A stretch of 64,000 nt of DNA, from assembly GCA_977017645.1 (NCBI GenBank), contig OZ360230.1, forward strand, positions 61,194,001 to 61,258,000, written 5' to 3'. Each line of letters opens with the position of its first letter. The first letter of the stretch is position 1. This document shows positions 9,201 to 57,854 of this stretch, one piece after another. This DNA comes from Torpedo marmorata. Its lineage: Eukaryota. The position numbers were made by a program, and so were the translations under genes. Under the pieces are notes generated by a model. The model was not told the DNA's origin and searched no databases. It saw only the letters and a list, made by a program, of their open reading frames with translations.

Positions 9201-12200
9201 TGTGGAAGCTCTGGAGAGGATGCAGAGGAGATTTACCAGAATGTTGCCTGGATTAGAAAATAAGTCTTATGAGGCAAGGTTAGCAGAGCTGGGACATTTT
9301 CTCTTTGGAGCGTAGAAGGATGAGAGGAGACTTAATAGAGGTCTACAAGATTATGAGAAACATAGATAGGGTGGACAGCCAGCGCCTTTTTCCCAGGGCA
9401 GGAATAGCAAACACCAGAGGACACATGTACAAGGTGAAGGGAATGAAGTTTAGGGGAGACATCAGCGGTAGGTTTTTTTTACACAGAGAGTTGTGGGTGC
9501 CTGGAATGCCTTGCCAGGGATGGTGGTGGAGGCTGAAAAATTAGGGGCATATAAGAGACTCTTGGACAGGCACATGGATGGAAGAAAAATACAGGGTTAC
9601 GGGGTAGGGAGGGTTCAGTACTTTTTTAAAGGAATATATGGATAGGTACAACATCGAGGGCTGAATGGCCTGTACTGTACTGTAGGGTTCTACGTTCTAA
9701 GGAATAGCGATCATCGGCATTAAATACAATGGTGGTGTCAATATTGTCTACGTTTAAGAAACACTGCCAAAGGAGATACCATATATGTTAGACCAACCTC
9801 CATGAATTTCTGCCATTCTTAAGACTCCAATGTAAAAGAGCAACATGAAAGCCGCACATCACCTTCACATTGCATTCCTTTACCTGTATGCTCAGGCATC
9901 ATGGTACTGGCTGTCGTTGAGATGCTCGTGGTGGTTGTTATACCACACCCCTCTGCAGGAAAAAGAAGGAAAAGGATCAGAAGATCTTAACTTTTCAAAG
10001 ATCAATATGTGGTCACGCTTCCAGCCTTTCGAAGCATGGAAAAACAAAAGAACCGCGGTATTATGGGAGAAATGCCGATCTTAGGCACTAAATACAATAA
10101 TGGCGTCAGTATTGATTACATTTAAAAAATACTGCCAAAGGAGGTACCATACATGTCAGACCAACCTTCACAACATCCTACGTGGAAGGAAATGTCATCC
10201 ACAGCCACATCACTCCGATAGTCATTACCCCGGACTGCTTCAAGAAGGATCTGTCCAAAAAGTATCACAATATCAGAAGGAAACAATGGCAATAGCATCA
10301 TTCGAGCACCCTGCTCTCAAGAGAAAATAGAAAAACAGAGGCACATAACAGGTTATAAACCTTAACAAAATTTGTCCAGGGGAAAGATATTGTAATGATG
10401 TTCAAAAGTTAATTGCTAATTGTTCAAGGTCTGCTCGCACAAGGCAATGAAATGTATGAAAGAATGCAACATAGAGACTGGTGAGAGGCCTTGGTCATGT
10501 CACTTCAAAGAGCTATAAGATTCCAAACACAAGGTCAAAAAGTTGAATGAAAAGGCATGCAGCATTCTGTCCGTTATTGGCTGCCAGTTATATGAGCAGC
10601 AAGGTGATGCGTGAACTGTCAGCAACACCAGTAAGAACACTGCTCGTATACTCTGCACAGTTCTCATCACATCACACCAAAGATATGATTGCACTGGAGA
10701 ATGTGTAAGGAACATTGAGAAAGGCATTGCCAGGACAGGAAAGTTGTGGTTATGAGGAAAACATAAACAAACTAGGACTGTTTGCAGCAGAGGAGGGTGA
10801 GGGTAGCTAATTGAGATCTATCAATATGTTAAGACAATGCACAGGACAAAGAAAAGGACCTCCTCAGTGCAAGAGCCATAAGTTTAATGTAACTGGCTAA
10901 AAGATGAGAGGCGATATGAAAAAAACATTTCTCCCAGAGGATGGCACAAAACGGGAACTCGACTACTGCAAGGAGAATAGACATTGCTGCAAATACACTC
11001 TGCCACAAATAAAAATAACTCCACGTCTTCGGTCCCATAAAGGCATTGAAAGGAGGAGATCCAGTGTGTACTTTACGTGATTAAGTTGATATACCTAATC
11101 GAATCGCCAAGACAAAGACTCCAAATGAGGATATACGATTAATCAACAGGAGCAGGGAGAGGAAGAACAGAAAACATTCCCTGTCAATGGAATGCTGGTG
11201 CTGCAATGAAGCCTTGAAAAGGCGTGATTGGATGTCAGTGCCAGTCAGCGTGGACATTCATTCAGCTCCAAGGAGAATAGCAGAAGAAACCTTCAGCACA
11301 TTGAAACAGTACTAACAGAGTTGTGACTTTCAGGAACTTCCAGAGTTTGGTTGGTCATTTCCAATCACCAGAAGACACAATGTGCCTAAAGGCCTCCACC
11401 ATTTCTTCTCCAAGATTTCTATAAAAGGGATCTCTTGAATATTATTCATGAAGTTTACCTGAGAATGTCCAGAGAGGTAAAGGTCTACTTCTCCTGCAAT
11501 CCATCTGTTTCCCTGATTTCCTGACTCAGACCACTTTAGGACTGCTGCCCCTTGATCAACCTGGTAAACGTTCAGCGCCATGTTTTGAGCTACTCCATAC
11601 ATGTGGTACCAGAATCGCATGCACTGAGCTCCTCTCTTTACACATGGAGCGCTGACCAACTGAGCTCGATCTCCTGGTTTGCCATCATTGCCTTCAAGGT
11701 AAATGTAGTAGCCACCTGCGCACACAAGAAGCTTTATTGCTTACAAAGAAATCAGCTGCACAGTGGCGAGATACAAATCTCACATCACCTACCCGCAGTG
11801 GTGTGGTCAAACGCTGGTCCTGTATTAAACGATGGCGTCGACCCACTGATGCGTTTCCAGTCCAAAGTATCGGTCTTGGATTGGTTCCAACGGCACAGGT
11901 CACTATCAAAGTTACAATCCAATGCACAACCTGTGGGTTTCGTCAAGACAGGTCAGTTGTGTGAATACACCCAGCCACAGGTAGAAATAACTCCAACATG
12001 TCACTTGCACTCTTCAAACAAACTCACATGCAACTCAGGGATACCTACAGGCTTGCGATTTGAAGGGAAACCCTGCTTTACTGATTTCCCGCATTTCAAC
12101 ATTGATGACATGCAGAAATAAAACAGAGGAAAGGAGTAAGATATCAAACTTACTTTTCTCAAAACAGCCACTCTGCTGCCTCCAGTCTCCGAGCACAACA

Positions 12201-15200
12201 CCAGCTGCTTCACAGGCTGAAGCATAAGACTCCAGAGTGTTGCACAACTGCACAGAATCTCCGCCGGTGACACAATGATCGTAGACACAGCTTGCAAAGT
12301 ATAGCTGAGGTGGGATATGCCAGTGACAATCTTTAAATGGACCAGGGTTCGCCAAAACAATTTTGCAGTACCTCTCAGCCTCTTCTTGTGATGGAGAATC
12401 GCATGTCGGTGGATCAGGAGCAGTTTGATTACACCTGTGCAACAGAAACAATCTCTCACTTTTTTCAAATGGGAATGGTCTCTCATTCTACTTTATCCTC
12501 TGCAGAGCAGAATGAAGGTTGCAGGAGGGGTAGGGGTCTGGGCGGATAGAAAACACAGGGGCGTCAAATATTAAAGGAGGCACATGCTTCCTGCACGCAA
12601 CTGAAAAGACTGAAATACATCCTGAAAGCAACGCTGGAAACAGTTCTTCAGTTCTTCGCCGTGTGCTGATGTCGTTCATGAGAACAATACACAGGAGTTG
12701 ATTTGGAAACCTTCTTGAAATCTCTGCATTGTCCCTACATACCCTCACATCACCCAACCTTACCACTTGCTTTAATTATTGCAACAACTATTCTCTCACT
12801 CGATGCAAGAAATCTTAGCATTTACATTAACAGAAATACACGACAGAAAAACTCACAGCCAATCATCATCAGCAACCGCCCAACTGTTTCCAAACTGATT
12901 GGAATCCAAGGCTAGAATTCCGTCAGGTTTCAAGAAGTCATCCAGCTGGTCATTGGTGTAGGTCCCGCACAAGCCACACAGCTGTCCTTTGTATCTCTCA
13001 TCCACAACGACAACAAGTTGATGATCTCCGTCAAACTTCACCTGAAGACCAAAGTCCGTCTCCAACAGAACAAAGGATCCTTCCAACGTCACTTTCACTG
13101 AAGAAATGGGTCTCACAGGGAGCTCAACCCTCACTCCATCAACCTAAGCAAACACATTACCAAGTGAACAAACACAGAATCACAAACATCCCAGCTATCG
13201 CACATTAAAACATCAAATCAATGCAGAAACATTTGCTCTTCGCTATATAATACTTACATAAACCTTCTTATATTTCCGCAGTGCAATATGAAGGTTGTCA
13301 AGATGCAAGCCAACTGAATTAATGGCAGACCATGTTGGACTACCTCTGTGTTCATTTCTACTTGTCAAAGAAAATCGAACAGATGTATTTCCGCAAGTCT
13401 CGGTCACCGTATAATTGCAGGCACCCTGGAAGTGGTACAGCTTCCCATCAAATGTTGTATAGTGCGGGTCACCATAGATGTGGCAAATTGCTGTGTCTGC
13501 GCTGTAACATCCCCAATTGCCGCCCTGCACTTTGCAAATTTCCCCCGCTCCACAAGATCCTGGCTCGCATTCCACTCGGTTATTCCCAGTGCAGCGGCAC
13601 CTTTCTACACATCCGTCTTCCCAGAACATTGCACCTTTCTGACACACAAACAGCAAACATTATTTTCACAATGGCCACATGGTGAAAAGGAAGCAGAACC
13701 TTGTTTTCCGAGAAACCAGAGCGCTCCGCAAACCCTTGTCACTCACCTCGTAGTATTTGTTGTTGTGCGTGCAGCCACAGTTCTCAACAGGCACACATGA
13801 GCTTCCACTCAGGACAAAGCCAGCGTTACACTCACAGTCCTCCACACAAGGTTCACTGCAGTTAGCTGAAGCAGAACGGTCAGTGCAAGTGGTTGGACAA
13901 GCACTGGCACAGGCATTGTAATGACTATTGGCTGGGCACCTGACAGCTGAAAGCAGACAAGGAACAAGATATTTTACACTCGAGTTAAAAGTATTCTCTG
14001 ACACAATCTTGGACAAATCCTCAGACAGGCCAATGTGGCACCAACCACATTTGGAGCTGGCTAACACCTACCACAGAAAGTGGAGTTCCTCCACGGCAGA
14101 TTGGTCACTCCTGCGCTTTGGCAGGCATCTGCATAGATTTGCAGGCTATTACACAAAGCCTCTTGGTCTCCATCCAACAAGCACAGTTCAACAACGCAAC
14201 TTTCAAAGATGCCATGGGCGTTGATTACCGAGTGGCAATTTACAAATGGCCCCTGTTGACTGGTGATCAGGCCACAGAACTCATCACTTCGGTAGCGGGC
14301 CTCGTCAGCGGGCTGACACTCTTCTGCCTCGTCTGGGTCACAACCTGGCTCGTCAGGTGGCACCTTCCAGCTATTTCCCAGTTCGTTGGAATCTTTCGCT
14401 TGCTCTCCATCAGGTTTCATGTAATCATCCTCTCTCATTCCATTGTAGTTACCGCACATACCACAAGTCCGATTAAAGTACGTGCTCGGCACCTTCACTT
14501 CCACTGAGTGATCCGTGTCGTAAGAAACATGCAGGCCAAAGTCAGTGGACAGCACCACGTACCTTCCGCTCCTCCTCACACTCACGGCACCTTCAGCAAG
14601 CCGAACAGGTAAGGTCGTCCACACTTCATCAACCTGAGCACAAGAGCAAATCCTGCTTTATCCAACATTCTTCCTATCACAGCACTGCAACCACGCACTC
14701 CGTGCACCAAGCAAACTCCAGCAACAATGCAAACAATCACTGCAATTGACCCATCATTACATTAGGCATCACTTTTCTGCACCTTCAGATACATTCAGAA
14801 CATTTTCTTCTCATTAGGAAACAAACTGGAAATGCTATGAGAATTCAACTCTCTTATTTACAAATTGTAGGAATAAACTTATAGGTTTTTTTTCCCCACA
14901 CCAAGTGCCTCATTAATTTCTCCCTGAGAATATATGAGAAGAAAAAAAGTAACTACTGGTAATTAAAAACCGTGATGAAGGTGGCGACTTTTTACCATCC
15001 AGGTTACTTTATCTTTCTTCATACTTTTCTTTTATTTCTTTTCCTTTCTTTTCTTTCTTTTTTTCTGGGGTTTTGGTTTGGGGGGAGGGAGGGCCGGGAC
15101 TTACCCATCGTGTATAAGCAATGTAATAATAATGAATTGATTTCTTGTTATGTATTATACAATTATGCATGTTTGGATAAAAAAATTTAAATAAAATATT

Positions 15201-18200
15201 CATTAAAAAATCAACTCTCTTCCGTTACACTGCACTGTACCTTCTTACTCACTCATATTTTCAATTACAAAGAAAACACTTCACACAGCTCACGATTCCA
15301 AATTCAGGATTGGTAGAAAGTGCAGGTCTCAGCCTGACAGTCACAAGCTTACCAATACACGGTGAGGTTCCATCTTGACAATCCAAACCTTGTGGTCACG
15401 AACAGCGACCTGAACTTTCTGAACATAAGATACTTTAGGGTTGCCACGGTTTTCATTTTTTGCTTCAATGTTGAAGTGTAGAAGAGAGGAGGAATTTCCG
15501 CACAGCTTGGCTATCGTATAGGTACAGCTACCCATAAAATGGAGCGTCGCTTTGTCAAAAGTGTTGTAATGCGGATCATTGTGGATTCTGCAGATTCCGT
15601 ACGTGTATGGGTAGCAACCAGGGACTCCGTTCACAACTCCACAGTATGAATCTCGGGAACACGTTGAATTCGAGCACACCATTTGACTGCCTGCTGAAGG
15701 ACATCGACACTGAGTTGAACAGGTATCATCGGTCCAGAATTCAGAGCCCACTGGGTAGTGCTTTCCTTCAGACCAGCAGCCACACTGTTGTTTTGGCACA
15801 CATCTGTCATTGTAGAAAAGGTAACCATCGTCACATACACAGCCTTCCACGCATGGTTGCAAGCAGCTGGATGGAGCACTTGGACTGACACAAGTAGCTG
15901 GGCAAGCTGAGCCACACTGCTCATAATGACTATTCGCTCCACATTTTAGGGCTGTGAAGAGAACCCATAAAGTGGCATGTTAATTTCCTATGAAATTCCT
16001 TCCATCAACACTCAGCTCAAATCAGATTGATCAATAATTTCTGATGGCTTCCACTCGCCACAAAGTGGCATTGAAGCATCTGGCAGATCATTCTCAAGCA
16101 CTTACGGCAAAAGGTCTCATTCCTCCAGCCTTCCACTTTGGCCCCCTCTGACTGGCACGCATCTCCATACGACTCCAAACTACTGCACAGAGACTCTGTC
16201 TCCGTGCCTAATGCGCAAAGGTCGTACACACAATCATCAAAATAAACCTCCGGGTCTATTTTGGAGTGGCACCCTTTGAAAGGACCATGCAAATCCATGA
16301 TTATCCCACAGTACTGGTTACTTTCGATGATTCGCTTTTCCTCACTCGTGCAATTTGGCCTGATGCCATCGTCAGGAGTACACCTGGAAAAACAGCAGCA
16401 TCCCAAATGAGAAATAGGTTAACGCAACAGCAAAACTCTGCAAGCAAGTAGCACAGTGATGAACGTTAGAGATATGACAGCTTTCAAAGGAAGGGGAAAT
16501 TCCCCACAGCTTGGTTACAATGTACCTTGTGTCATTTTGAGTCTGCCAGCTGTTGCCCAAGCTGACGGAATCAGGCTCCATTATTCCATCCGGATTCAGA
16601 AAATCATCTCTTCTGTCGTCATTATAGTTTCCGCAGAGTCCACACACCTTGCCCTTGAAAGGACTGGGGAGAGTTACCTCAGCTCGGTGCCTGCCATTAA
16701 ACTTCACTCGCAATCCAAAACTGGTGGTAATGACTACATACTGTCCAGACAGAGCAACGAGAACTTCTGAGGTGACTGACACGGGTAGAACTGCCACTTC
16801 CCCATCAACCTGCAAACAGACAAATCACTCATCAATTGATTCTCCTGCCAACACACATTTCAATGCACCCGATGAAGACGCTTAGCATATCCAACCCTTA
16901 CCTTTACAACACGCCCTTTTCCGAGCATGATTCTGTGATTGAAAACCTCAACCGTGACATGTCTGACGTATGACACGTGGGCATTTCCTGATCTGTGCTC
17001 ATTTTCAGCTTCAACGTTGAAATAGGGCAGTCTGTCGTTTGTACTGCACAGTTTTGATAAGGTATACGTGCATGTTCCCATAAAGTCGTGAGCTTGCTTA
17101 TCAAAGCTCATGTAATGAGGATCTCCTTGCACTATGCAGGATGATTCTGAAAGTGGAGAAATAAAAAATAATATGTGGAATGTCAGTTAGTAATATACAA
17201 CCCATTGACAAGGATGTTGACAAGCTATGATTAAGAGGAAAGTTACAGTTTATTTCACAGGTGAAGGTCAGGGAAGAATAAACTTGTGTATCAAATAATT
17301 TTTGCACTAACACCTCCCTCAGCAACTGCCATGTGCTCTATGAGATAGAGATTTTAAGAAACTGGTAGAAAGCAGAGAGGTCTAATACAATGAATATCTT
17401 TCACCCAGAGGGTGGAATTTGGGGATCTGGAACGTAATACCTTCCAAAAGTAGTTGGTGCAGGCACAGACCCTCACCAACTTAGAAGGGGATAGAATATG
17501 CAGGCAAATTGCTTTGACCTAGAAACCTACAGTCTTGTAACTGGAACCAGCAATAGGATATGAAGTTGCTTCATTGTCGAGCCCACGAGGGACCGAATGA
17601 AGCTTTCTATGCCATGAATTTCTGCCATTCTTAAGACTCCAATGTAAAAGAGCAACATGAAGGCCCCACATCACCTTCACATTGCATTCCTTTACCTGTA
17701 TGCACAGGCATCGTGGTACTGGCTGTCGTTGAGATGCTCGTGGTGGTTGTTATACCACACCCCTCTGCAAGAAAAAGAAGGAACAGGATCAGAAGATCTT
17801 ACCTTTCAATATGTGGTCACGCTTCCAGCCTTTCGAAGCATGGAAAAACAAGAGAACCGCGGTATTATGGGAGAAATGCCGATCTTAGGCACTAAATACA
17901 ATAATGGCGTCAGTATTGATTACATTTAAAAAATACTGCCAAAGGAGATACCATACATGTCAGACCAACCTTCACAACATCCTACGTGGAAGGAAATGTC
18001 ATCCACAGCTACATCACTCCGGTAGTCATTTCCCCGGACTGCTTCAAGAAGGATCTGTCAGAGAAAGTAACACAATATCAGAAGGAAATAATGTCAATTG
18101 CATCATTCGAGCACCCTGCTGGCATTAGATAATAGAAAAAAAAGGCACACAACCAGTCACAGATCTTAACAAAACATGTTCAGGGAAAACAAATCTTAAT

Positions 18201-21200
18201 ACTGTTCAAAATTATAACTGCTAATTGCTCATGATCTTCTGGCACAAAGACAAGGGAAAGCATGACACTGCATTTTGGGCAACAGAAAAGAAAATGGAAT
18301 TTCTACCAAAGAAGTGTGTTGATACATTTAGCCAGCGAGTACAAGGCAATTCAATGTATTAAAGAATGCAGCGGAGTGACTGGAGAGAGGAACAAAAAGG
18401 CCTTGGAGTGTTACATCAAAGATTTTGAAAGTTTTAAACACAGATCAAAAAGGCATGCAGCATTCTGTCCGTTATTGGCTGCCAGTTATATGAGCAGCAA
18501 GGTGATGCGTAAACTGTCAGCAACACCAGTAAAAACACTGCTCGTATACTCGTATACTCTGCACAGTTCTCATCACATCACACCAAAGATATGATTGCAC
18601 TGGAGAATGTGTAAGGAACATTGAGAAAGGCATTGCCAGGACGGGAAAGTTGTGGTTATGAGGAAAACATAAACAAACTAGGGCTGTTTGCAGCGGAGGA
18701 GGGTGAAGGTAGCTAATTGAGATCTATCAATATGTTAAGACAATGGACAGGACAAAGAAAAGGACCTCCTCAGTGCAAGAGTCATAAGTTTAATGTAACT
18801 GGCTAAAAGATGAGAGGCGATATGAAAAAAACATTTCTCCCAGAGGATGGCACAAAACGAAAACTCGCCTACTGCAAGGAGAATAGATATTGCTGCAAAT
18901 ACACTCTGCCACAAATAAAAATAACTCCACGTCTTCGGTCCCATAAAGGCATTGAAAGGAGGAGATCCAGTGTGTACTTTACGTGATTAAGTTGATATAC
19001 CTAATCGAATCGCCAAGACAAAGACTCCAAATGAGGATATACGATTAATCAACAGGAGCAGGGAGAGGAAGAACAGAAAACATTCCCTGTCAATGGAATG
19101 CTGGTGCTGCAATGAAGCCTTGAAAAGGCGTGATTGGATGTCAGTGCCAGTCAGCGTGGACATTCATTCAGCTCCAAGGAGAATAGCAGAAGAAACCTTC
19201 AGCACATTGAAACAGTACTAACAGAGTTGTGACTTTCAGGAACTTCCAGAGTTTGGTTGGTCATTTCCAATCACCAGAAGACACAATGTGCCTAAAGGCC
19301 TCCACCATTTCTTCTCCAAGATTTCTATAAAAGGGATCTCTTGAATATTATTCATGAAGTTTACCTGAGAATGTCCAGAGAGGTAAAGGTCTACTTCTCC
19401 TGCAATCCATCTGTTTCCCTGATTTCCTGACTCAGACCACTTTAGGACTGCTGCCCCTTGATCAACCTGGTAAACGTTCAGCGCCATGTTTTGAGCTACT
19501 CCATACATGTGGTACCAGAATCGCATGCACTGAGCTCCTCTCTTTACACATGGAGCGCTGACCAACTGAGCTCGATCTCCTGGTTTGCCATCATTGCCTT
19601 CAAGGTAAATGTAGTAGCCACCTGCGCACACAAGAAGCTTTATTGCTTACAAAGAAATCAGCTGCACAGTGGCGAGATACAAATCTCACATCACCTACCC
19701 GCAGTGGTGTGGTCAAACGCTGGTCCTGTATTAAACGATGGCGTCGACCCACTGATGCGTTTCCAGTCCAAAGTATCGGTCTTGGATTGGTTCCAACGGC
19801 ACAGGTCACTATCAAAGTTACAATCCAATGCACAACCTGTGGGTTTCGTCAAGACAGGTCAGTTGTGTGAATACACCCAGCCACAGGTAGAAATAACTCC
19901 AACATGTCACTTGCACTCTTCAAACAAACTCACATGCAACTCAGGGATACCTACAGGCTTGCGATTTGAAGGGAAACCCTGCTTTACTGATTTCCCGCAT
20001 TTCAACATTGATGACATGCAGAAATAAAACAGAGGAAAGGAGTAAGATATCAAACTTACTTTTCTCAAAACAGCCACTCTGCTGCCTCCAGTCTCCGAGC
20101 ACAACACCAGCTGCTTCACAGGCTGAAGCATAAGACTCCAGAGTGTTGCACAACTGCACGGAATCTCCGCCGGTGACACAATGATCGTAGACACAGCTTG
20201 CAAAGTATAGCTGAGGTGGGATATGCCAGTGACAATCTTTAAATGGACCAGGGTTCGCCAAAACAATTTTGCAGTACCTCTCAGCCTCTTCTTGTGATGG
20301 AGAATCGCATGTCGGTGGATCAGGAGCAGTTTGATTACACCTGTGCAACAGAAACAATCTCTCACTTTTTTCAAATGGGAATGGTCTCTCATTCTACTTT
20401 ATCCTCTGCAGAGCAGAATGAAGGTTGCAGGAGGGGTAGGGGTCTGGGCGGATAGAAAACACAGGGGCGTCAAATATTAAAGGAGGCACATGCTTCCTGC
20501 ACGCAACTGAAAAGACTGAAATACATCCTGAAAGCAACGCTGGAAACAGTTCTTCAGTTCTTCGCCGTGTGCTGATGTCGTTCATGAGAACAATACACAG
20601 GAGTTGATTTGGAAACCTTCTTGAAATCTCTGCATTGTCCCTACATACCCTCACATCACCCAACCTTACCACTTGCTTTAATTATTGCAACAACTATTCT
20701 CTCACTCGATGCAAGAAATCTTAGCATTTACATTAACAGAAATACACGACAGAAAAACTCACAGCCAATCATCATCAGCAACCGCCCAACTGTTTCCAAA
20801 CTGATTGGAATCCAAGGCTAGAATTCCGTCAGGTTTCAAGAAGTCATCCAGCTGGTCATTGGTGTAGGTCCCGCACAAGCCACACAGCTGTCCTTTGTAT
20901 CTCTCATCCACAACGACAACAAGTTGATGATCTCCGTCAAACTTCACCTGAAGACCAAAGTCCGTCTCCAACAGAACAAAGGATCCTTCCAACGTCACTT
21001 TCACTGAAGAAATGGGTCTCACAGGGAGCTCAACCCTCACTCCATCAACCTAAGCAAACACATTACCAAGTGAACAAACACAGAATCACAAACATCCCAG
21101 CTATCGCACATTAAAACATCAAATCAATGCAGAAACATTTGCTCTTCGCTATATAATACTTACATAAACCTTCTTATATTTCCGCAGTGCAATATGAAGG

Positions 21201-42200: not shown

Positions 42201-45200
42201 GTTATATGAGCAGCAAGGTGATGCGTAAACTGTCAGCAACACCAGTAAAAACACTGCTCGTATACTCGTATACTCTGCACAGTTCTCATCACATCACACC
42301 AAAGATATGATTGCACTGGAGAATGTGTAAGGAACATTGAGAAAGGCATTGCCAGGACGGGAAAGTTGTGGTTATGAGGAAAACATAAATAAACTAGGGC
42401 TGTTTGCAGCGGAGGAGGGTGAAGGTAGCTAATTGAGATCTATCAATATGTTAAGACAATGGACAGGACAAAGAAAAGGACCTCCTCAGTGCAAGAGTCA
42501 TAAGTTTAATGTAACTGGCTAAAAGATGAGAGGCGATATGAAAAAAACATTTCTCCCAGAGGATGGCACAAAACGGAAACTCGCCTACTGCAAGGAGAAT
42601 AGATATTGCTGCAAATACACTCTGCCACAAATAAAAATAACTCCACGTCTTCGGTCCCATAAAGGCATTGAAAGGAGGAGATCCAGTGTGTACTTTACGT
42701 GATTAAGTTGATATACCTAATCGAATCGCCAAGACAAAGACTCCAAATGAGGATATACGATTAATCAACAGGAGCAGGGAGAGGAAGAACAGAAAACATT
42801 CCCTGTCAATGGAATGCTGGTGCTGCAATGAAGCCTTGAAAAGGCGTGATTGGATGTCAGTGCCAGTCAGCGTGGACATTCATTCAGCTCCAAGGAGAAT
42901 AGCAGAAGAAACCTTCAGCACATTGAAACAGTACTAACAGAGTTGTGACTTTCAGGAACTTCCAGAGTTTGGTTGGTCATTTCCAATCACCAGAAGACAC
43001 AATGTGCCTAAAGGCCTCCACCATTTCTTCTCCAAGATTTCTATAAAAGGGATCTCTTGAATATTATTCATGAAGTTTACCTGAGAATGTCCAGAGAGGT
43101 AAAGGTCTACTTCTCCTGCAATCCATCTGTTTCCCTGATTTCCTGACTCAGACCACTTTAGGACTGCTGCCCCTTGATCAACCTGGTAAACGTTCAGCGC
43201 CATGTTTTGAGCTACTCCATACATGTGGTACCAGAATCGCATGCACTGAGCTCCTCTCTTTACACACGGAGCGCTGACCAACTGAGCTCGATCTCCTGGT
43301 TTGCCATCATTGCCTTCAAGGTAAATGTAGTAGCCACCTGCGCACACAAGAAGCTTTATTGCTTACAAAGAAATCAGCTGCACAGTGGCGAGATACGAAT
43401 CTCACATCACCTACCCGCAGTGGTGTGGTCAAACGCTGGTCCTGTATTAAACGATGGCGTCGACCCACTGATGCGTTTCCAGTCCAAAGTATCGGTCTTG
43501 GATTGGTTCCAACGGCACAGGTCACTATCAAAGTTACAATCCAATGCACAACCTGTGGGTTTCGTCAAGACAGGTCAGTTGTGTGAATACACCCAGCCAC
43601 AGGTAGAAATAAGTCCAACATGTCACTTGCACTCTTCAAACAAACTCACATGCAACTCAGGGATACCTACAGGCTTGCGATTTGAAGGGAAACCCTGCTT
43701 TACTGATTTCCCGCATTTCAACATTGATGACATGCAGAAATAAAACAGAGGAAAGGAGTAAGATATCAAACTTACTTTTCTCAAAACAGCCACTCTGCTG
43801 CCTCCAGTCTCCGAGCACAACACCAGCTGCTTCACAGGCTGAAGCATAAGACTCCAGAGTGTTGCACAACTGCACGGAATCTCCGCCGGTGACACAATGA
43901 TCGTAGACACAGCTTGCAAAGTATAGCTGAGGTGGGATATGCCAGTGACAATCTTTAAATGGACCAGGGTTCGCCAAAACAATTTTGCAGTACCTCTCAG
44001 CCTCTTCTTGTGATGGAGAATCGCATGTCGGTGGATCAGGAGCAGTTTGATTACACCTGTGCAACAGAAACAATCTCTCACTTTTTTCAAATGGGAATGG
44101 TCTCTCATTCTACTTTATCCTCTGCAGAGCAGAATGAAGGTTGCAGGAGGGGTAGGGGTCTGGGCGGATAGAAAACACAGGGGCGTCAAATATTAAAGGA
44201 GGCACATGCTTCCTGCACGCAACTGAAAAGACTGAAATACATCCTGAAAGCAACGCTGGAAACAGTTCTTCAGTTCTTCGCCGTGTGCTGATGTCGTTCA
44301 TGAGAACAATACACAGGAGTTGATTTGGAAACCTTCTTGAAATCTCTGCATTGTCCCTACATACCCTCACATCACCCAACCTTACCACTTGCTTTAATTA
44401 TTGCAACAACTATTCTCTCACTCGATGCAAGAAATCTTAGCATTTACATTAACAGAAATACACGACAGAAAAACTCACAGCCAATCATCATCAGCAACCG
44501 CCCAACTGTTTCCAAACTGATTGGAATCCAAGGCTAGAATTCCGTCAGGTTTCAAGAAGTCATCCAGCTGGTCATTGGTGTAGGTCCCGCACAAGCCACA
44601 CAGCTGTCCTTTGTATCTCTCATCCACAACGACAACAAGTTGATGATCTCCGTCAAACTTCACCTGAAGACCAAAGTCCGTCTCCAACAGAACAAAGGAT
44701 CCTTCCAACGTCACTTTCACTGAAGAAATGGGTCTCACAGGGAGCTCAACCCTCACTCCATCAACCTAAGCAAACACATTACCAAGTGAACAAACACAGA
44801 ATCACAAACATCCCAGCTATCGCACATTAAAACATCAAATCAATGCAGAAACATTTGCTCTTCGCTATATAATACTTACATAAACCTTCTTATATTTCCG
44901 CAGTGCAATATGAAGGTTGTCAAGATGCAAGCCAACTGAATTAATGGCAGACCATGTTGGACTACCTCTGTGTTCATTTCTACTTGTCAAAGAAAATCGA
45001 ACAGATGTATTTCCGCAAGTCTCGGTCACCGTATAATTGCAGGCACCCTGGAAGTGGTACAGCTTCCCATCAAATGTTGTATAGTGCGGGTCACCATAGA
45101 TGTGGCAAATTGCTGTGTCTGCGCTGTAACATCCCCAATTGCCGCCCTGCACTTTGCAAATTTCCCCCGCTCCACAAGATCCTGGCTCGCATTCCACTCG

Positions 45201-48200
45201 GTTATTCCCAGTGCAGCGGCACCTTTCTACACATCCGTCTTCCCAGAACATTGCACCTTTCTGACACACAAACAGCAAACATTATTTTCACAATGGCCAC
45301 ATGGTGAAAAGGAAGCAGAACCTTGTTTTCCGAGAAACCAGAGCGCTCCGCAAACCCTTGTCACTCACCTCGTAGTATTTGTTGTTGTGCGTGCAGCCAC
45401 AGTTCTCAACAGGCACACATGAGCTTCCACTCAGGACAAAGCCAGCGTTACACTCACAGTCCTCCACACAAGGTTCACTGCAGTTAGCTGAAGCAGAACG
45501 GTCAGTGCAAGTGGTTGGACAAGCACTGGCACAGGCATTGTAATGACTATTGGCTGGGCACCTGACAGCTGAAAGCAGACAAGGAACAAGATATTTTACA
45601 CTCGAGTTAAAAGTATTCTCTGACACAATCTTGGACAAATCCTCAGACAGGCCAATGTGGCACCAACCACATTTGGAGCTGGCTAACACCTACCACAGAA
45701 AGTGGAGTTCCTCCACGGCAGATTGGTCACTCCTGCGCTTTGGCAGGCATCTGCATAGATTTGCAGGCTATTACACAAAGCCTCTTGGTCTCCATCCAAC
45801 AAGCACAGTTCAACAACGCAACTTTCAAAGATGCCATGGGCGTTGATTACCGAGTGGCAATTTACAAATGGCCCCTGTTGACTGGTGATCAGGCCACAGA
45901 ACTCATCACTTCGGTAGCGGGCCTCGTCAGCGGGCTGACACTCTTCTGCCTCGTCTGGGTCACAACCTGGCTCGTCAGGTGGCACCTTCCAGCTATTTCC
46001 CAGTTCGTTGGAATCTTTCGCTTGCTCTCCATCAGGTTTCATGTAATCATCCTCTCTCATTCCATTGTAGTTACCGCACATACCACAAGTCCGATTAAAG
46101 TACGTGCTCGGCACCTTCACTTCCACTGAGTGATCCGTGTCGTAAGAAACATGCAGGCCAAAGTCAGTGGACAGCACCACGTACCTTCCGCTCCTCCTCA
46201 CACTCACGGCACCTTCAGCAAGCCGAACAGGTAAGGTCGTCCACACTTCATCAACCTGAGCACAAGAGCAAATCCTGCTTTATCCAACATTCTTCCTATC
46301 ACAGCACTGCAACCACGCACTCCGTGCACCAAGCAAACTCCAGCAACAATGCAAACAATCACTGCAATTGACCCATCATTACATTAGGCATCACTTTTCT
46401 GCACATACAGATACATTCAGAACATTTTCTTCTCATTAGGAAACAAACTGGAAATGCTACGAGAATTCAACTCTCCTCCGCTACACTGCACTGTACCTTC
46501 TTACTCACTCATATTTTCAATTACAAAGAACGCACAGCTCACGATTCCAAATTCAGGATTGGTAGAAAGTGCAGGACTCAGCCTGACAGTCACAAGCTTA
46601 CCAATACACGGTGAGGTTCCATCTTGACAATCCAAACCTTGTGGTCACGAACAGCGACCTGAACTTTCTGAACATAAGATACTTTAGGGTTGCCACGGTT
46701 TTCATTTTTTGCTTCAATGTTGAAGTGTGGAAGAGAGGAGGAATTTCCGCACAGCTTGGCTATCGTATAGGTACAGCTACCCATAAAATGGAGCATCGCT
46801 TTGTCAAACGTGTTGTAATGCGGATCATTGTGGATTCTGCAGATTCCGTACGTGTATGGGTAGCAACCAGGGACTCCGTTCACAACTCCACAGTATGAAT
46901 CTCGGGAACACGTTGAATTCGAGCACACCATTTGACTGCCTGCTGAAGGACATCGACACTGAGTTGAACAGGTATCATCGGTCCAGAATTCAGAGCCCAC
47001 TGGGTAGTGCTTTCCTTCAGACCAGCAGCCACACTGTTGTTTTGGCACACATCTGTCATTGTAGAAAAGGTAACCATCGTCACATACACAGCCTTCCACG
47101 CATGGTTGCAAGCAGCTGGATGGAGCACTTGGACTGACACAAGTAGCTGGGCAAGCTGAGCCACACTGCTCATAATGACTATTTGCTCCACATTTTAGGG
47201 CTGTGAAGAGAACCCATAAAGTGACACGTTAATTTCCTATGAAATTCCTTCCATCAACACTCAGCTCAAATTAGATTTTTAAAAAAAATATTTTATTTAA
47301 AATTTTAAATCACAAAATACATAAGTTAAATTGTAAAATTGTCAAAATACATGTGATACATTTTCATCCCCCCTGCCTCCCTCCCCTCCAACCCCTTCTA
47401 ATAAAAAGAAAAAGAAAGAAAAAGATAGTATTAGGAGAATGTCAATCTCAAAAATACATCAATAACTAATTTTATTATGTAGGATAGGTTTGCCAGTCAG
47501 ATCCAATGTCCAGAGATCTTCAAATCCTTAAACCAACAACCTTCATATGAGGGCTCCATATTTTCAAAAAGAAATGATATTTATTACGTAAATTATAAGT
47601 AATTTTTTTCAAGTGGTATACAAGAACGAAGTTGTGCATGCCATCTTTCTAACCCTAAATCTACATCAGATTTCCAAGTAATAGCAATACATTTCTTAGA
47701 AACAGCTAAAGCGATTCGCAAAAATTCTATTTGATACATATTTAATTTCATCTTAATACTAACTCTTTTAATATCTCCAAAAAAAAAATCACATGGTCCA
47801 TTGGGAATGTAATTTTTAATACTTTATCAAAAATTTTTTAACTTTCAACCAAAAATCATAAATTTTTGGACAGAACCATGTAGAATGTACAAAAGAACCT
47901 TCCTCTCTATTACATCTAAAACATAAGCCTGATAATGTCGCGTTAAATTTCTTTAACTTTTTAGGTGTTAAATATAATTGTAAAAAAAAAATATTTTATT
48001 TAAAATTATAAATCACAAAATACATAAGATAAAATTATAAAATTATCAAAATACATGTGATATATTTTCACCCCCCCCTCCCACCCTCACCTCCCTAACC
48101 CTCCCATCCCTACTAATCTAATAAAATAAAATAAAATTTTAAAAAAAGAAAAAAGATAGAATAAGGAGAATGTCAATCTAAAAATACATCTATAAACTAA

Positions 48201-51200
48201 TTCTATTATGGAGGTTAGGTTCGCCAGTAGATCCAATATCCAGAGATTTTCAAATTCTTAAACCAACAACTTTCATATATGGGCTCCAAATTTTTAAAAA
48301 GAAATGATACTTATTACGTAAATTATAAGTAATTTTTTCAAGTGGTATACATGAACGAAGTTCTGCATGCCATCTTTCTAATCCTAAATATAAATCAGAT
48401 TTCCAAGTAATAGCAATACATTTCTTTGAAACAGCTAAAGCAATTTGCAAAAATTCTGTTTGATACATGTTTAATTTCATCTTAATACTAAATTTTCTAA
48501 TATCTCCGAACAAAAATATCATAGGATCCATTGGAAATATAATCTTAAATACTTTATCTAAAAATTGTTTAACTTTCAACCAAAAATCATAAACTTTTGG
48601 ACAAAACCATGTAGAATGTACAAAAGAACCTTCCTCTTTATTACATCTAAAACATAAACCTGATAATGTCGGATTAAATTTCTTTAATTTTTTAGGTGTT
48701 AAATATAATTGATGAAAAAAATTATATTGTACTAATCTATATCTGACATTAATAATCTTCGTCATACTTAATTTACATAATTCTTTCCAATGATTTTCAT
48801 CTATTGTTACATTCAAATCTAATTCCACTTTAGTCTTGATTTATGAATTCCTACTTTAGGAACTTTTCTCTGAAACAATTTATACATTTGAGAGATAAAT
48901 TTATTTACATCTCCTTTAGTAACTAATAATTCTAATTCATTCTGTCTTGGTAAAATCAAACTATAACCTAATTTCCCAACCAAAAATGCTCTAATCTGAT
49001 AATAAGCAAAAAGTGTATTATCCAACACATTAAATTTATCTTTCATTCTTTGAAAAGTAATAAATTTCCCAGCTTCAAAACAGTCATTTATTTTCTTAAT
49101 TCCTTTTAGAAACCAAATTTTAAATAATTGATTATTAATAGTAAATGGAATAAGTTCATTTTGATAAAGAGGCATCTTTGGAGAAATAGATCCTTTACCT
49201 CCTATTTCCTTATCCGTTTTGTTCCATATTTCTAACAAATGTTTAAAGATAGGAGAATTTTTCTTTCTTGTAGATATTAATTTAGAATCCCATTTATAAA
49301 TAACTACTTCTTTAAAATCTTCTCCTATATTATTTAATTCTATTCTAATCCAAGCAGAAGATTTAGTTAAATCAAAAAGCTCATTAACAAATTTTAATTG
49401 AGCTGCTTTATAATAATTTTGAAAATTAGGAAGTTGTAAACCGCCCATTTCATAATTCCAAGTTAATTTTTTTATACCTACCCTTGCCAACTTTCCTTTC
49501 CATAAAAATTTCCTAATAATTGAATTTAAATCTTTAAAACATTTTTGAGGTATTTCATAAGGAATTGATTGGAAAAGATATTGAATTCTTGGAAAAACAT
49601 TCATTTTAATACAATTTACCCTTCCCATTAAAGTTATAGGTAAATCTTTCCAATTTTCTAAATCTTTTTTAATTTTCATAAACAATGGTAGATAATTTAA
49701 TTAGAATGTAAAAATGGTAAATAATTTATATAAATTAGCTAATTTTGTGTCAATCTTTATTCCCAAATATTTAATTCCTTCTTTTGCCCATTTAAATTGT
49801 GTAATTTCTTTACATTTACTATAATCCCCTTGCGTTAATGCCATAATTTCACTTTTGTCAGAATTAATCTTATAGCCAGATATTTCCCCGTATTCTCTCA
49901 ATAAAGCAGTCAATTGTATTAAAGAAGTAATAGGTTTTGTCATATAAATCATTACATCATCTGCAAATAAACTAATTTTATGCTCTTCTCTTCCGATTTT
50001 AATACCTGCAATCTTAATATCTTGTCTAATTAATTCTGCCAAAGGTTCTATTGCTAAAGTAAACAATGCTGGTGACAAAGAACATCCTTGTCTAGTTGAC
50101 CTAGTCAAAGGAAATTTTGAAGAAATTTGTCCATTTGTGACCACTTTAGCAGATGGTTCTTTATATATAGTTTTAATCCAATTAATAAATGTAGTTCCAA
50201 AACAAAATTTCTCCAATACCTTAAATAAATAATTCCACTCTAATCTATCAAAAGCCTTTTCAGCATCTAACGTTAATACTAATGCTAAATCATCCTTCTT
50301 TTTATCCACATTAATTAAACTAATTCATCTAGCTATATTGAAGCATCTGGCAGATCATTCTCAAGCACTTACGGCAAAAGGTCTCATTCCTCCAGCCTTC
50401 CACTTTGGCCCCCTCTGACTGGCACGCATCTCCATACGACTCCAAACTACTGCACAGAGACTCTGTCTCCGTGCCTAATGCGCAAAGGTCGTACACACAA
50501 TCATCAAAATAAACCTCCGGGTCTATTTTGGAGTGGCACTCTTTGAAAGGACCATGCAAATCCATGATTATCCCACAGTACTGGTTACTTTCGATGATTC
50601 GCTTTTCCTCGCTCGTGCAATTTGGCCTGATGCCATCGTCAGGAGTACACCTGGAAAAACAGCAGCATCCCAAATGAGAAATAGGTTAACGCAACAGCAA
50701 AACTCTGCAAGCAAGTAGCACAGTGATGAACGTTAGAGATTTGACAGCTTTCAAAGGAAGGAGAAATTCCCCACAGCTTGGTTACAATGTACCTTGTGTC
50801 ATTTTGAGTCTGCCAGCTGTTGCCCAAGCTGACGGAATCAGGCTCCATTATTCCATCCGGATTCAGAAAATCATCTCTTCTGTCGTCATTATAGTTTCCG
50901 CAGAGTCCACACACCTTGCCCTTGAAAGGACTGGGGAGAGTTACCTCAGCTCGGTGCCTGCCATTAAACTTCACTCGCAATCCAAAACTGGTGGTAATGA
51001 CTACATACTGTCCAGACAGAGCAACGAGAACTTCTGAGGTGACTGACACGGGTAGAACTGCCACTTCCCCATCAACCTGCAAACAGACAAATCACTCATC
51101 AATTGATTCTCCTGCCAACACACATTTCAATGCACCCGATGAAGACGCTTAGCATATCCAACCCTTACCTTTACAACACGCCCTTTTCCGAGCATGATTC

Positions 51201-51413
51201 TGTGATTGAAAACCTCAACCGTGACATGTCTGACGTATGACACGTGGGCATTTCCTGATCTGTGCTCATTTTCAGCTTCAACATTGAAATAGGGCAGTCT
51301 GTCGTTCGTACTGCACAGTTTTGATAAGGTATACGTGCATGTTCCCATAAAGTCGTGAGCTTGCTTATCAAAGCTCATGTAATGAGGATCTCCTTGCACT
51401 ATGCAGGATGATT
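5955..51413 (-). CDS. Giant FCGBP/zonadhesin-like secreted glycoprotein gene, partial: 66 exons in window, 5x[VWD-C8-TIL-E, VWD-C8-TIL-E, VWD-C8, MAM, Thr/Ser linker] plus one further VWD exon
   Basis: Minus-strand ORFs carry GDPHY/NDPHY, CGLCGNYN/CGMCGNYN, C8 (FxxCH..C..D.C...C..L..Y...C), TIL (C.ANSHY..C...CP.TC...C..PC.EGC.C) and MAM motifs. Exons delimited by hand have canonical AG/GT ends and compatible phases. The 5' and 3' ends were not found in the window. The orthology assignment (FCGBP-like vs ZAN-like) needs a phylogeny. Confidence 0.9.
7017..7373 (-). mobile_element. Solo LTR (probably Gypsy-type), 357 bp
   Basis: TGTAGCG...CGCTACA inverted termini; 4-bp TSD gtat (7013-7016 and 7374-7377); CpG-rich; minus-strand TATAAAA at 7146-7152 with upstream CCAAT and GC boxes. 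Confidence 0.85.
7555..9700 (+). mobile_element. 5'-truncated CR1 (HER1-like) LINE, fragmented ORF2
   Basis: DWRMANVVPLFKKG..NPGNYRPVSLTSV, GVPQGSVLGP, KFADDTK, RPHLEYCVQFWS; CR1-type 3' tail ...ggcctgtactgtactgtagggttctacgttcta. Confidence 0.92.
9884..9952 (-). CDS. Unit E exon 13: Thr/Ser-rich linker (EGCGITTTTSISTTASTMMPEHT)
   Basis: 69 nt, cctgcag|AG...ACAG|gtaaag, phase 1-1; not in the ORF track. Confidence 0.8.
9884..17146 (-). CDS. Repeat unit E (5th in transcription order), 13 exons, 1222 aa
   Basis: Exons 16902-17146, 16526-16809, 16106-16383, 15353-15951, 14072-14633, 13747-13946, 13258-13638, 12857-13143, 12154-12434, 11793-11930, 11459-11715, 10166-10250, 9884-9952; lengths sum to 3666 nt. 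Confidence 0.88.
10166..10250 (-). CDS. Unit E exon 12: MAM C-terminus (ILLEAVRGNDYRSDVAVDDISFHVGCCE)
   Basis: 85 nt, ggacag|ATC...GAAG|gttggt; matches the MAM C-terminal EAVRG...D.A.DDI motif. Confidence 0.85.
11459..11715 (-). CDS. Unit E exon 11: MAM core (GYYIYLEG...CMRFWYHMYG...W..SGNQGNRW)
   Basis: 257 nt, canonical splice sites, MAM consensus residues. Confidence 0.9.
11793..11930 (-). CDS. Unit E exon 10: MAM N-terminus (CALDCNFDSDLCRWNQ...TGPAFDHTT)
   Basis: 138 nt, phase 1-1; CxF(D/E)..xCxW and TGP..DHT MAM signature. Confidence 0.9.
12154..12434 (-). CDS. Unit E exon 9: C8 domain 3
   Basis: 281 nt; GPFKDCH...CVYDHC...LCNTLESYASAC...WR. Confidence 0.9.
12857..13143 (-). CDS. Unit E exon 8: VWD3 C-terminal half
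   Basis: 287 nt; VDGVRVELP...LCGLCGTY...FGNSW. Confidence 0.9.
13258..13638 (-). CDS. Unit E exon 7: E/TILa module and VWD3 N-terminal half (YGDPHY)
   Basis: 381 nt, phase 0-0. Confidence 0.9.
13747..13946 (-). CDS. Unit E exon 6: TIL domain
   Basis: 200 nt; CPANSHYNACASACPTTC...CVEDCEC..GFVLSG..CVP...CGC. Confidence 0.9.
14072..14633 (-). CDS. Unit E exon 5: VWD2 C-terminal half and C8 domain 2
   Basis: 562 nt; TCGMCGNYNG...GNSW...GPFVNCH...WRNSTFC. Confidence 0.9.
14856..15210 (+). mobile_element. L1 3'-end remnant in intron 4 of unit E; also at +7906, +15812 and +23716 in units D, C and B
   Basis: ORF2 end YLQIVGINL*, T-rich/G-rich UTR, aataaa and A tail; TSD tcaactctctt at 14845-14855 and 15211-15221; empty site in unit A at ~46467-46477. 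Confidence 0.8.
15353..15951 (-). CDS. Unit E exon 4: TIL, E/TILa and VWD2 N-terminal half (HNDPHY)
   Basis: 599 nt, phase 1 to 0. Confidence 0.9.
16106..16383 (-). CDS. Unit E exon 3: C8 domain 1
   Basis: 278 nt; GPFKGCH...DCVYDLC...WRNETFC. Confidence 0.9.
16526..16809 (-). CDS. Unit E exon 2: VWD1 C-terminal half
   Basis: 284 nt; VDGEV..LP...VCGLCGNYN...LGNSW. Confidence 0.9.
16902..17146 (-). CDS. Unit E exon 1: VWD1 N-terminal half (ESSCIVQGDPHY)
   Basis: 245 nt, ctttcag|AA...AAG|gtaagg. Confidence 0.9.
17696..25052 (-). CDS. Repeat unit D, 13 exons, 1222 aa
   Basis: Exons 24808-25052, 24432-24715, 24012-24289, 23259-23857, 21978-22539, 21653-21852, 21164-21544, 20763-21049, 20060-20340, 19699-19836, 19365-19621, 17970-18054, 17696-17764. 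Confidence 0.88.
25602..32958 (-). CDS. Repeat unit C, 13 exons, 1222 aa
   Basis: Exons 32714-32958, 32338-32621, 31918-32195, 31165-31763, 29884-30445, 29559-29758, 29070-29450, 28669-28955, 27966-28246, 27605-27742, 27271-27527, 25876-25960, 25602-25670 (by offset from the ORF track). Confidence 0.88.
33506..40862 (-). CDS. Repeat unit B, 13 exons, 1222 aa
   Basis: Exons 40618-40862, 40242-40525, 39822-40099, 39069-39667, 37788-38349, 37463-37662, 36974-37354, 36573-36859, 35870-36150, 35509-35646, 35175-35431, 33780-33864, 33506-33574. Confidence 0.88.
41412..51413 (-). CDS. Repeat unit A (first in transcription order), 13 exons, with a 3-kb L1 insertion in intron 3
   Basis: Exons 51169-51413, 50793-51076, 50373-50650, 46602-47200, 45694-46255, 45369-45568, 44880-45260, 44479-44765, 43776-44056, 43415-43552, 43081-43337, 41686-41770, 41412-41480. 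Confidence 0.87.
47278..47980 (-). mobile_element. Short 5'-truncated L1 copy (end of ORF2 plus 3'UTR)
   Basis: Paralogous to 47981-48710; A tail at the left end. Confidence 0.85.
47981..50336 (-). mobile_element. 5'-truncated L1-clade LINE, ORF2 RT to C-terminus with two frameshifts
   Basis: ORFs 49701-50309, 48819-49685 and 48250-48828 closely match 60051-62118. Confidence 0.92.
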
Positions 51414-51524
51414 CTGAAAGTGGAGAAATAAAAAATAATATGTGGAATGTCAGTTAGTAATATACAACCCATTGACAAGGATGTTGACAAGCTATGATTA
51501 AGAGGAAAGTTACAGTGTATTTCA

Positions 51525-57846: not shown

Positions 57847-57854
57847 AACTGGAG

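Follow-up and report, generated by a model that had tools for sequence, protein, structure and literature searches.

A Zlg-family gene of the electric ray Torpedo marmorata contains five near-identical VWD-MAM cassettes

RESULTS

Structure of the repeat array

The 64,000-nucleotide window that we analyzed (Torpedo marmorata contig OZ360230.1, positions 61,194,001 to 61,258,000) carries on its minus strand the central part of a very large gene, whose product is an extracellular protein of adhesion type composed of five near-identical cassettes. Gene structure, domain order, family placement, and homogenization of the cassettes are shown here, and sequence comparison places the gene in the zonadhesin-like (Zlg) family, as a relative of zonadhesin and not FCGBP. 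Taken as a whole, the locus is probably best explained as the internal repeat region of an intact Zlg-family gene, a paralog of zonadhesin/zanl with five homogenized cassettes, whose product would be a cleaved, disulfide-tied scaffold. The architecture itself was already known.

Self-BLAST of the window revealed tandem copies that recur about every 7.9 kb and are 99.3 to 99.7% identical over 12 to 28 kb, introns included. Tandem Repeats Finder reported only short repeats in the window, because the 7.9-kb period exceeds the limit of that tool. From the 5'-most to the 3'-most, cassettes 1 to 5 occupy positions 41412..51413, 33506..40862, 25602..32958, 17696..25052, and 9884..17146, all on the minus strand. 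Each consists of 13 exons that total 3,666 nt in all five units. The exons of cassette 1 are at 51413-51169, 51076-50793, 50650-50373, 47200-46602, 46255-45694, 45568-45369, 45260-44880, 44765-44479, 44056-43776, 43552-43415, 43337-43081, 41770-41686, and 41480-41412, and those of cassette 5 are at 17146-16902, 16809-16526, 16383-16106, 15951-15353, 14633-14072, 13946-13747, 13638-13258, 13143-12857, 12434-12154, 11930-11793, 11715-11459, 10250-10166, and 9952-9884.

All 65 exons are bounded by an AG acceptor and a GT donor, the phases agree at every exon junction, and the unit both starts and ends in phase 1. The five units joined give 18,330 nt, or 6,109 codons with 0 stops, which bears out a first-pass annotation that had read 13 exons of 3,666 nt per unit, running from phase 1 to phase 1, as one open reading frame of more than 6,100 amino acids. 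For 13 random flank pieces of matching lengths, the joint probability of all being stop-free is about 6e-19. A pseudogene was considered and rejected.

The extent previously assigned, 9884..51413, does contain the five units, but the gene runs on past it. An exon at 6202-5955 (minus strand, phase 1) encodes the N-terminal half of VWD D4, including a GDPH motif (Pfam VWD, 7e-19), is the first exon of a nonrepeated C-terminal block, and lengthens the frame to 6,192 codons, again with 0 stops. Its product is identical at 79 of 82 residues to residues 2545-2626 of a Narcine bancroftii model and is 55% identical to D1 of the window. Both gene ends lie beyond the window: tblastn and six-frame local alignment against relatives found no 5' exons for an N-terminal MAM in 51414-64000 and no further 3' exons in 1-5950 (best scores of 39 to 49 versus shuffled maxima of 47 to 60). 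No additional exons were found within the introns of unit 5. No neighboring gene was seen in the window, and the long flank open reading frames that were scanned are LINE derived.

Domains and motifs of the unit

Pfam analysis of 14 exon pieces gave the unit order VWD-C8-TIL-E, VWD-C8-TIL-E, VWD-C8, MAM, and a 23-residue Thr/Ser linker, placing VWD, C8, TIL, TILa, and MAM where they had been annotated. In cassette 5, exons 1 to 3 (16106..17146) encode VWD D1, with a GDPH motif, and C8 (VWD, 1e-15 and 5e-17; C8, 8e-25). Exons 4 and 5 (14072..15951) encode TIL, E (TILa), VWD D2 with NDPH in place of GDPH, and C8, and exons 6 to 9 (12154..13946) encode TIL, E, VWD D3 with GDPH, and C8, with no TIL-E after it. 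A single MAM is spread over exons 10 to 12 (10166..11930), which match positions 1-38, 43-123, and 131-157 of the 158-position Pfam profile; exon 12 by itself falls below the curated Pfam cutoff (17.6 bits; E, 0.0037). Exon 13 (9884..9952, phase 1-1), which has no Pfam match, encodes the Thr/Ser-rich linker.

Every third VWD-C8 thus lacks TIL-E and is followed directly by a MAM. All of the 15 complete VWD-C8 assemblies counted earlier are present as VWD-C8 pairs, though just 10 of them go on to form full VWD-C8-TIL-E units; similarly, a MAM and Thr/Ser linker do follow every third VWD, but the supposed PTS region comes from a single 69-nt exon and is a brief hinge rather than a mucin domain. 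The order is, as had been recognized, unlike that of mammalian FCGBP and zonadhesin, giving a MAM-punctuated chain of D domains. GDPH occurs at 11 of 16 VWD starts, each with an upstream cysteine, and NDPH occurs at 5 of 16. Each module has an even number of cysteines (32, 32, 14, and 8), which leaves none obviously unpaired for covalent polymerization.

Relatives with repeated cassettes

At least two such units are present in 31 of 378 named proteins, all 31 being gene predictions, from 26 species of sharks, rays, sturgeons, a turtle, squamates (geckos and a python), and birds. The first-pass annotation had proposed a distinct architecture, and that claim falls because the periodic layout is already catalogued in annotated relatives, among them a five-unit Hemiscyllium model and the chicken form of Hunt et al. 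2005. The suggestion of a specialty of cartilaginous fish fails too, and a shark-specific design is ruled out, as the unit repeats in birds, the turtle, geckos, the python, and sturgeons. Judged from these comparisons, the cassette layout is an old, little-studied vertebrate design, known beyond cartilaginous fish. The relatives are labeled inconsistently in databases, as IgGFc-binding-like, zonadhesin, or MALRD-like proteins.

The closest match is Narcine bancroftii XP_069753664.1, with 94.3% identity over 1,203 amino acids; sharks show 76 to 82%. The Narcine model and its isoforms have the same domain order and a nearly identical D4 exon, but two units rather than five and a linker of 39 rather than 23 residues. 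The epaulette shark, Hemiscyllium ocellatum, has a 7,014-amino-acid RefSeq model, XP_060690392.1 ("IgGFc-binding protein-like"), arranged as MAM-(D1-D2-D3-MAM)x5-D4-D5 with an EGF-like end. Its five full units are 99.4 to 100% identical to each other, but the linker exon is missing between some units of the predicted model. In quail and gecko models, the two units are only 72 to 75% alike.

Insertions and homogenization

The inner units differ at 4 to 6 of 3,666 coding sites and at 0.05 to 0.14% of intron sites, and about half of the coding differences among units are nonsynonymous. Identity in this homogenized core is too high to reveal selection on exons; a test there is uninformative because the differences are too few and because the diverged edge of unit 5 pushes up the intron count. 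That edge, the last 0.6 kb of cassette 5, falls outside the core and shares about 90% identity with the remaining copies, with exons differing at 5 of 154 sites versus 46 of 494 for introns (Fisher P = 0.015).

At the other end of the array, intron 3 of cassette 1 alone contains a LINE of about 3 kb (47278..50336, minus strand) that was recognized by its reverse transcriptase (RVT_1, 2e-28) and its junctions, with a 41-bp deletion at the site; the splice sites of the intron are still intact. Cassettes 2 to 5 share a 357-bp insertion in intron 4 (14854..15210 in cassette 5, no strand assigned) with a 9-bp target-site duplication, which is missing from cassette 1. Short parts of this insertion match LINE ends elsewhere in the window at 76 to 90%.

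Five of ten pairs of informative sites among the units are incompatible. In all six of the multi-unit shark and ray models compared, units within a protein are 99.0 to 99.9% identical to one another versus 76 to 94% identical to the window, which indicates continual homogenization; units within further shark, sturgeon, and paddlefish models are 99.4 to 100% identical. We propose that the 7.9-kb cassette was amplified and may have been kept uniform by unequal crossing over together with gene conversion. Since the cassette runs from phase 1 to phase 1, copy number is free to change with the frame unbroken.

We think it unlikely that the copy number is partly an artifact of assembly, with fewer true units or with haplotypes laid in tandem. 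The inner-unit differences are within the allelic range and the closest relative is modeled with two units, but private or mosaic variants occur in every unit, and five units are also found in another shark assembly. Moreover, the end units are structurally distinct in the 3-kb LINE, the missing 357-bp insertion, and the diverged 3' edge, and therefore at least two, and probably more, of the copies are real.

Less probable still is a recently amplified segment that is untranscribed, or partly transcribed, with a frame open only through the youth of its copies. In its favor, the open frames of units 2 to 4 are not independent evidence because the copies are nearly identical. Against this reading, the unit protein is 94% identical to that of its closest relative and 55 to 82% identical to those of species hundreds of millions of years apart, with the same junction order. 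In addition, the exons at the 3' edge are better conserved than the introns, and the D4 exon farther downstream is undamaged and keeps the phase.

Placement among Zlg, ZAN, and FCGBP

The chicken form was described by Hunt et al. 2005, who named the family zonadhesin-like (Zlg) and reported three MAM domains with O-glycosylation sites after each. Criteria for the family also include gut expression and synteny with the chicken locus on chromosome 9. Beyond that paper, we found no description of this family and no functional study in the literature covered, which lay mostly outside subscription journals. The window gene combines VWD, TIL, and MAM with mucin-type segments as is characteristic of Zlg, its MAMs lying inside the chain behind VWD domains. 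The Zlg proteins of Hunt et al. 2005 (salmon, zebrafish, and chicken "FCGBP-like" XP422715.1) likewise have internal MAMs followed by O-glycosylation-type segments among their VWDs. Teleost Zlg, however, has a reduced plan, (MAM)-D2-D3-MAMn-D6, in which the MAM recurs and not the whole cassette.

In a VWD tree, D1, D2, and D3 of the window each join shark, paddlefish, gecko, and quail domains in clades that are starred. Salmonid Zlg VWD1 belongs to the D2 clade (100/99) and Zlg VWD2 to the D3 clade (100/100), a pairing also reported for chicken (Hunt et al. 2005). Salvelinus P0305, whose domain positions match the published salmon Zlg, and Coturnix P0141, for chicken, served as stand-ins. Each of the domains D4 to D6 of the relatives pairs with one of the final three VWDs of zan/zanl, and the N-terminal MAM of the relatives groups with zanl MAM1. 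The internal MAM of the window groups with Zlg MAMs, apart from ZAN MAM1 and MAM2, in a 34-row group with moderate support (85/92, not starred).

ZAN and fish zanl share with Zlg-family relatives an N-terminal MAM, the last three VWDs, an EGF end, and, for tetrapod models, a transmembrane (TM) helix, but all of their MAMs are N-terminal, before one mucin region, and their repeated D domains fall in other clades. Roberts et al. 2022 define ZAN by the order MAM, mucin, tandem VWD and by a locus between Ephb4 and Epo. A ZAN ortholog was rejected. In the window, MAM recurs after every third VWD, and the zanl gene of sharks is a distinct one.

The RefSeq label "IgGFc-binding protein-like" carried by most relatives suggests a true FCGBP ortholog that gained MAMs, which we regard as the most improbable of the alternatives. 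FCGBP does have tandem VWD-C8-TIL-E with GDPH self-cleavage motifs, and it was the best match in a PDB sequence search, which otherwise returned only VWF, mucins, and small TIL proteins and no Zlg structure. A report on FCGBP (PMC11796319) describes an internal triplet duplication and no clear PTS regions. However, FCGBP_N (PF17517) was found in 0 of 11 family members scanned, and those with an intact N terminus begin with MAM. Zebra shark and paddlefish hold separate PF17517-bearing FCGBP proteins of about 40% identity, the PF17517-bearing models that were mapped have no MAM, and FCGBP VWDs fall outside the Zlg-plus-zan group. The AU test against a grouping with FCGBP (P = 3e-9) overstates the rejection, because the group was named after the tree was seen and forces the FCGBP domains together, unlike the free tree; this test is weak by design and carries no weight here. 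Absence of FCGBP_N from relatives, the MAM-broken chain, and the tree position largely refute FCGBP orthology. Thus, of the earlier description as FCGBP/zonadhesin-like, the VWD phylogeny retains the zonadhesin relationship, as Zlg, and drops FCGBP.

Membrane anchoring

The signal peptide, EGF, and anchor are taken from relatives only, because both gene ends are outside the window. The family plan would be signal peptide-MAM-(D1-D2-D3-MAM-Thr/Ser hinge)n-D4-D5-D6-EGF, followed in tetrapods by a TM helix and tail, with n = 5 here. A C-terminal EGF, TM, and short tail is a feature of zonadhesin (Hunt et al. 2005). Among 36 long family models, 18 have a C-terminal TM, and all 18 are from tetrapods.

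There is an appreciable, though lesser, chance that this same gene in the same family yields, in cartilaginous fish, an unanchored product, a secreted mucus scaffold working like FCGBP. No C-terminal TM is present in the shark or ray models examined, six of which end shortly after the EGF-like segment, and cDNA-verified salmon Zlg also has none (PMC1325057). Nevertheless, the TM is found in the tetrapod models and in shark zanl paralogs, and the even cysteine counts speak against such a scaffold. The shark models end a few residues past the EGF, which would fit read-through of a splice donor and hence incomplete models.

DISCUSSION

For the intact, five-cassette Zlg gene that we favor, expression site, cleavage, MAM binding, and anchoring are inferred as follows. 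The chain would enter the secretory pathway of the gut epithelium; salmon zlg is expressed in gut and not in testis (PMC1325057). GDPH sites would then self-cleave at Asp-Pro, the pieces being held by disulfides as protease-resistant beads. For FCGBP, two reports (PMC10880436 and PMC11796319) state that GDPH cleavage confers protease resistance and disulfide tethering. Counting against cleavage, D2 carries NDPH, and the glycine position is not among the GDPH mutants covered here. Each D triplet would be capped by a MAM, offering a surface for adhesion or self-association, and an O-glycosylated hinge would space each MAM from the next triplet. Such a chain would form an extended, multivalent scaffold where mucus meets the cells, either anchored or shed. 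A MAM-punctuated D-domain chain is plausibly a mucosal or adhesive scaffold, and the likeliest role for this one, as predicted from its domains, is adhesion at the gut surface, as a scaffold that cleaves itself and stays tethered by disulfides.

More tentatively, Zlg could be a sister gene of zonadhesin in jawed vertebrates that has been overlooked, that may have arisen by whole-genome duplication and seems to be absent from mammals, and that behaves as a genomic accordion. The 1,200-residue (VWD)3-MAM cassette would be kept and rehomogenized lineage by lineage in sharks, rays, and sturgeons, with other registers repeated elsewhere: only the MAM in teleosts, D4-MAM in a skate model, and only D4 in a sea turtle model.

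The locus offers a clean, fully resolved case of concerted evolution in a giant coding repeat. Sorting out the Zlg family would mend annotation across nonmammalian vertebrates and bear on the origin of zonadhesin. If the accordion reading is true, the number of cassettes would be variable and open to selection, setting the reach and the valency of an adhesion tether at the gut surface, and the family would display the original function out of which the zonadhesin of sperm was recruited.

A five-unit array read as one open frame

Units of about 7.9 kb are repeated in tandem between 9.8 and 51.8 kb of the window, and the copies are 99.3 to 99.7% identical over long stretches, introns included. 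Each unit, on the minus strand, has 13 exons summing to 3,666 nt. AG/GT ends bound 65 of 65 exons, phases agree at every junction, each unit runs from phase 1 to phase 1, and the five units (the copy number as assembled) splice into 6,109 codons with no stops; for length-matched pieces drawn at random from the flanks, the chance that every one stays open is about 6e-19. The array of five in-frame units reported by the first-pass annotation is real and was accurately described. Pfam, run with single exons as queries, gave the order VWD-C8-TIL-TILa, VWD-C8-TIL-TILa, VWD-C8 and a single MAM domain spread over three exons, and the final exon encodes a 23-residue Thr/Ser stretch. The count of 15 VWD-C8 pairs was correct, but TIL-E (E being TILa) is present in only 10 of them.

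An extra exon in phase 1, at 6202-5955, codes for half of a VWD domain and lengthens the frame to 6,192 codons. It agrees in 79 of 82 residues with the domain that opens the nonrepeated C-terminal block of a Narcine model. No further exons were found in 1-5950 or 51414-64000, so the gene extends past both window ends; judging from relatives, we estimate the complete product at some 7,400 to 7,600 residues.

The flanks are chiefly LINE remnants. Self-comparison yielded related copies, 79 to 91% alike, of a 5'-truncated AT-rich LINE at 59947-62118 (+), 2272-4753 (+) and 47284-50342 (-). One of the three retains an open frame of 723 codons that matches RVT_1, and the sequence suggests recent activity of this family. 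Other decayed LINE fragments, which we take to be CR1/L2, lie at 7735-9544 (+; RVT_1 match at 8620-8865) and 346-1834 (+). Three copies of a GC-rich element (0.2 to 0.8 kb, 75 to 77% alike) at 54477-58700 have long stop-free frames, in which no gene was identified. Introns within the array (9884-51413) are tiny, with a median of 154 bp and a maximum of 1,310 bp in the inner units, whereas those just outside it (3,681 bp, at least 5,954 bp and at least 12,587 bp) are packed with LINEs; homogenization may have purged insertions from the array.

Relatives and family placement

Three protein searches (best 120 of 246, of 460 and of 906 matches; lengths up to 5,000 aa) and two cluster look-ups gave 392 proteins, and domain order was mapped in 378 after 14 unnamed records were dropped. 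Among these matches, 44 of the 378, all gene predictions, carry at least one full D1-D2-D3-MAM unit: two units in 18, three in 12 and five in 1. The 31 multi-unit proteins listed (five rows are extra isoforms) come from 26 species of sharks, rays, paddlefish, sterlet, softshell turtle, geckos, python and many birds. One full unit is present in each of two models from frogs (P0032 and P0178). The closest sequence among the matches listed is Narcine bancroftii XP_069753664.1, with two units (94.3% over 1,203 aa), and the five-unit relative is Hemiscyllium ocellatum XP_060690392.1 (7,014 aa). The similarity to Narcine suggests that the DNA comes from a cartilaginous fish close to the electric rays. 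No mammalian member of the high-identity group was among the matches listed. The periodic architecture, proposed as distinct, is already catalogued in these proteins, five copies included, and had been outlined in print in 2005.

For the VWD tree, 81 domains were taken from 18 selected proteins, leaving out short and near-duplicate ones. Window D1, D2 and D3 each formed a starred clade with the domains that hold the same position in sawshark, paddlefish, gecko and quail. VWD1 of salmonid and grouper zonadhesin-like (Zlg) proteins lay inside the D2 clade (100/99) and their VWD2 inside the D3 clade (100/100). The nonrepeated D4 to D6 paired with the last three VWDs of zonadhesin (zan) and fish zanl (99/93 within a 91/86 group, 100/99 and 100/100), and FCGBP and tectorin domains lay outside these groupings. 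A MAM tree of 62 rows grouped the window MAM with those of teleost Zlg and the internal ones of these same proteins (85/92), and the family's N-terminal MAM with zanl MAM1 (100/99). FCGBP_N was found in 0 of 11 family members scanned. An AU test rejected a union of window and FCGBP domains, but adds little because its grouping was chosen once the tree had been seen and the constraint joins the FCGBP domains to each other as well.

Teleost Zlg proteins (P0241-P0358) share a single layout despite database names as varied as "zonadhesin," "IgGFc-binding protein" and "MAM and LDL-receptor class A domain-containing." The human counterpart of chicken chromosome 9 is the 3q region, a paralogue of the part of 7q22 that contains ZAN. 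The available text of Hunt et al. 2005 (PMC1325057) treats Zlgs as a family distinct from zonadhesin and describes a chicken "FCGBP-like" protein (4,770 aa, encoded on chromosome 9) that has three MAM domains and O-glycosylation sites after each; in that study, Zlg VWD1 clusters with VWD2 and VWD5 of the chicken protein, and Zlg VWD2 with the chicken VWD3 and VWD6. Excerpts of other papers give criteria for true Zan (Roberts et al. 2022, PMC9275260) and define FCGBP by FCGBP_N (Lang et al. 2016, PMC4948705). Our literature search found no paper on the Zlg family besides Hunt et al. 2005. The window gene is a new member of this known, under-studied family.

Homogenization among units

Between-unit coding differences amount to 4 to 15 of 3,666 bases. 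Units 2 to 5, but not unit 1, share an insertion of 357 bp that has a 9-bp target-site duplication, which indicates a single event spread through four copies. All four combinations occur in 5 of 10 informative-site pairs, the pattern expected from exchange among copies, and the end units retain private features. Along the diverged 3' edge, differences are rarer in exons (5 of 154 positions) than in introns (46 of 494; p=0.015). The pattern is a general one: in all six shark and ray models with several units, identity among the units of one protein is 99.0 to 99.9%, versus 76 to 94% to the window. Quail, swift, flycatcher and gecko models run counter to a uniform rule, with two unit types only about 70 to 77% alike.

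In birds and geckos (P0124, P0131, P0132, P0134, P0141, P0146 and P0147), it is the first unit that is about 70 to 77% identical to the later ones, which are near-identical to each other in models with three units, and same-position units are closer between species. Going by these sequences, the two-type arrangement would be the older. Elsewhere, other registers of the same gene are repeated, namely D4-MAM, D4 by itself or, in as many as 16 copies, MAM by itself (P0151 from Amblyraja, P0128 from Lepidochelys, P0135 from Pseudopipra, and P0143, P0155 and P0206 from teleosts; some are low-quality models).

Motifs, anchoring and probable function

MAM domains self-associate in meprins and receptor phosphatases, and the CGxCG...DD motif marks the VWD calcium site. 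GDPH occurs in D1, D3 and D4 and NDPH in D2, each with an upstream cysteine; the D2 NDPH recurs in sharks, paddlefish, turtle and squamates, with GDPH at that place in the listed birds and frogs. Every module has an even number of cysteines, and each unit has 12 N-glycan sequons. GDPH cleavage is treated in available portions of Yeshaya et al. 2024 (PMC10880436) and PMC11796319, the former reporting that in FCGBP D10 a glutamine 14 residues past the aspartate assists it; here, only D3 has glutamine at +14. By analogy with FCGBP, self-cleavage with disulfide tethering would produce protease-resistant beads.

The order in full-length models is signal peptide, MAM, (D1-D2-D3-MAM-linker)n, D4-D5-D6, EGF, transmembrane segment (TM) and tail. 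A C-terminal TM occurs in 18 of 36 long models, every one tetrapod; the shark and ray models examined all lack one. Six shark models (P0133, P0144, P0362, P0367, P0369 and P0370) end a few residues past the EGF-like segment; splice-donor read-through may hide an unannotated TM exon. Salmon zlg is described in the accessible part of Hunt et al. 2005 (PMC1325057) as expressed in gut and without a TM. For the ray product, we lean slightly toward an anchored over a secreted form. We consider it fairly likely that this is an intact Zlg gene encoding a long scaffold for multivalent adhesion where gut mucus meets the cells.
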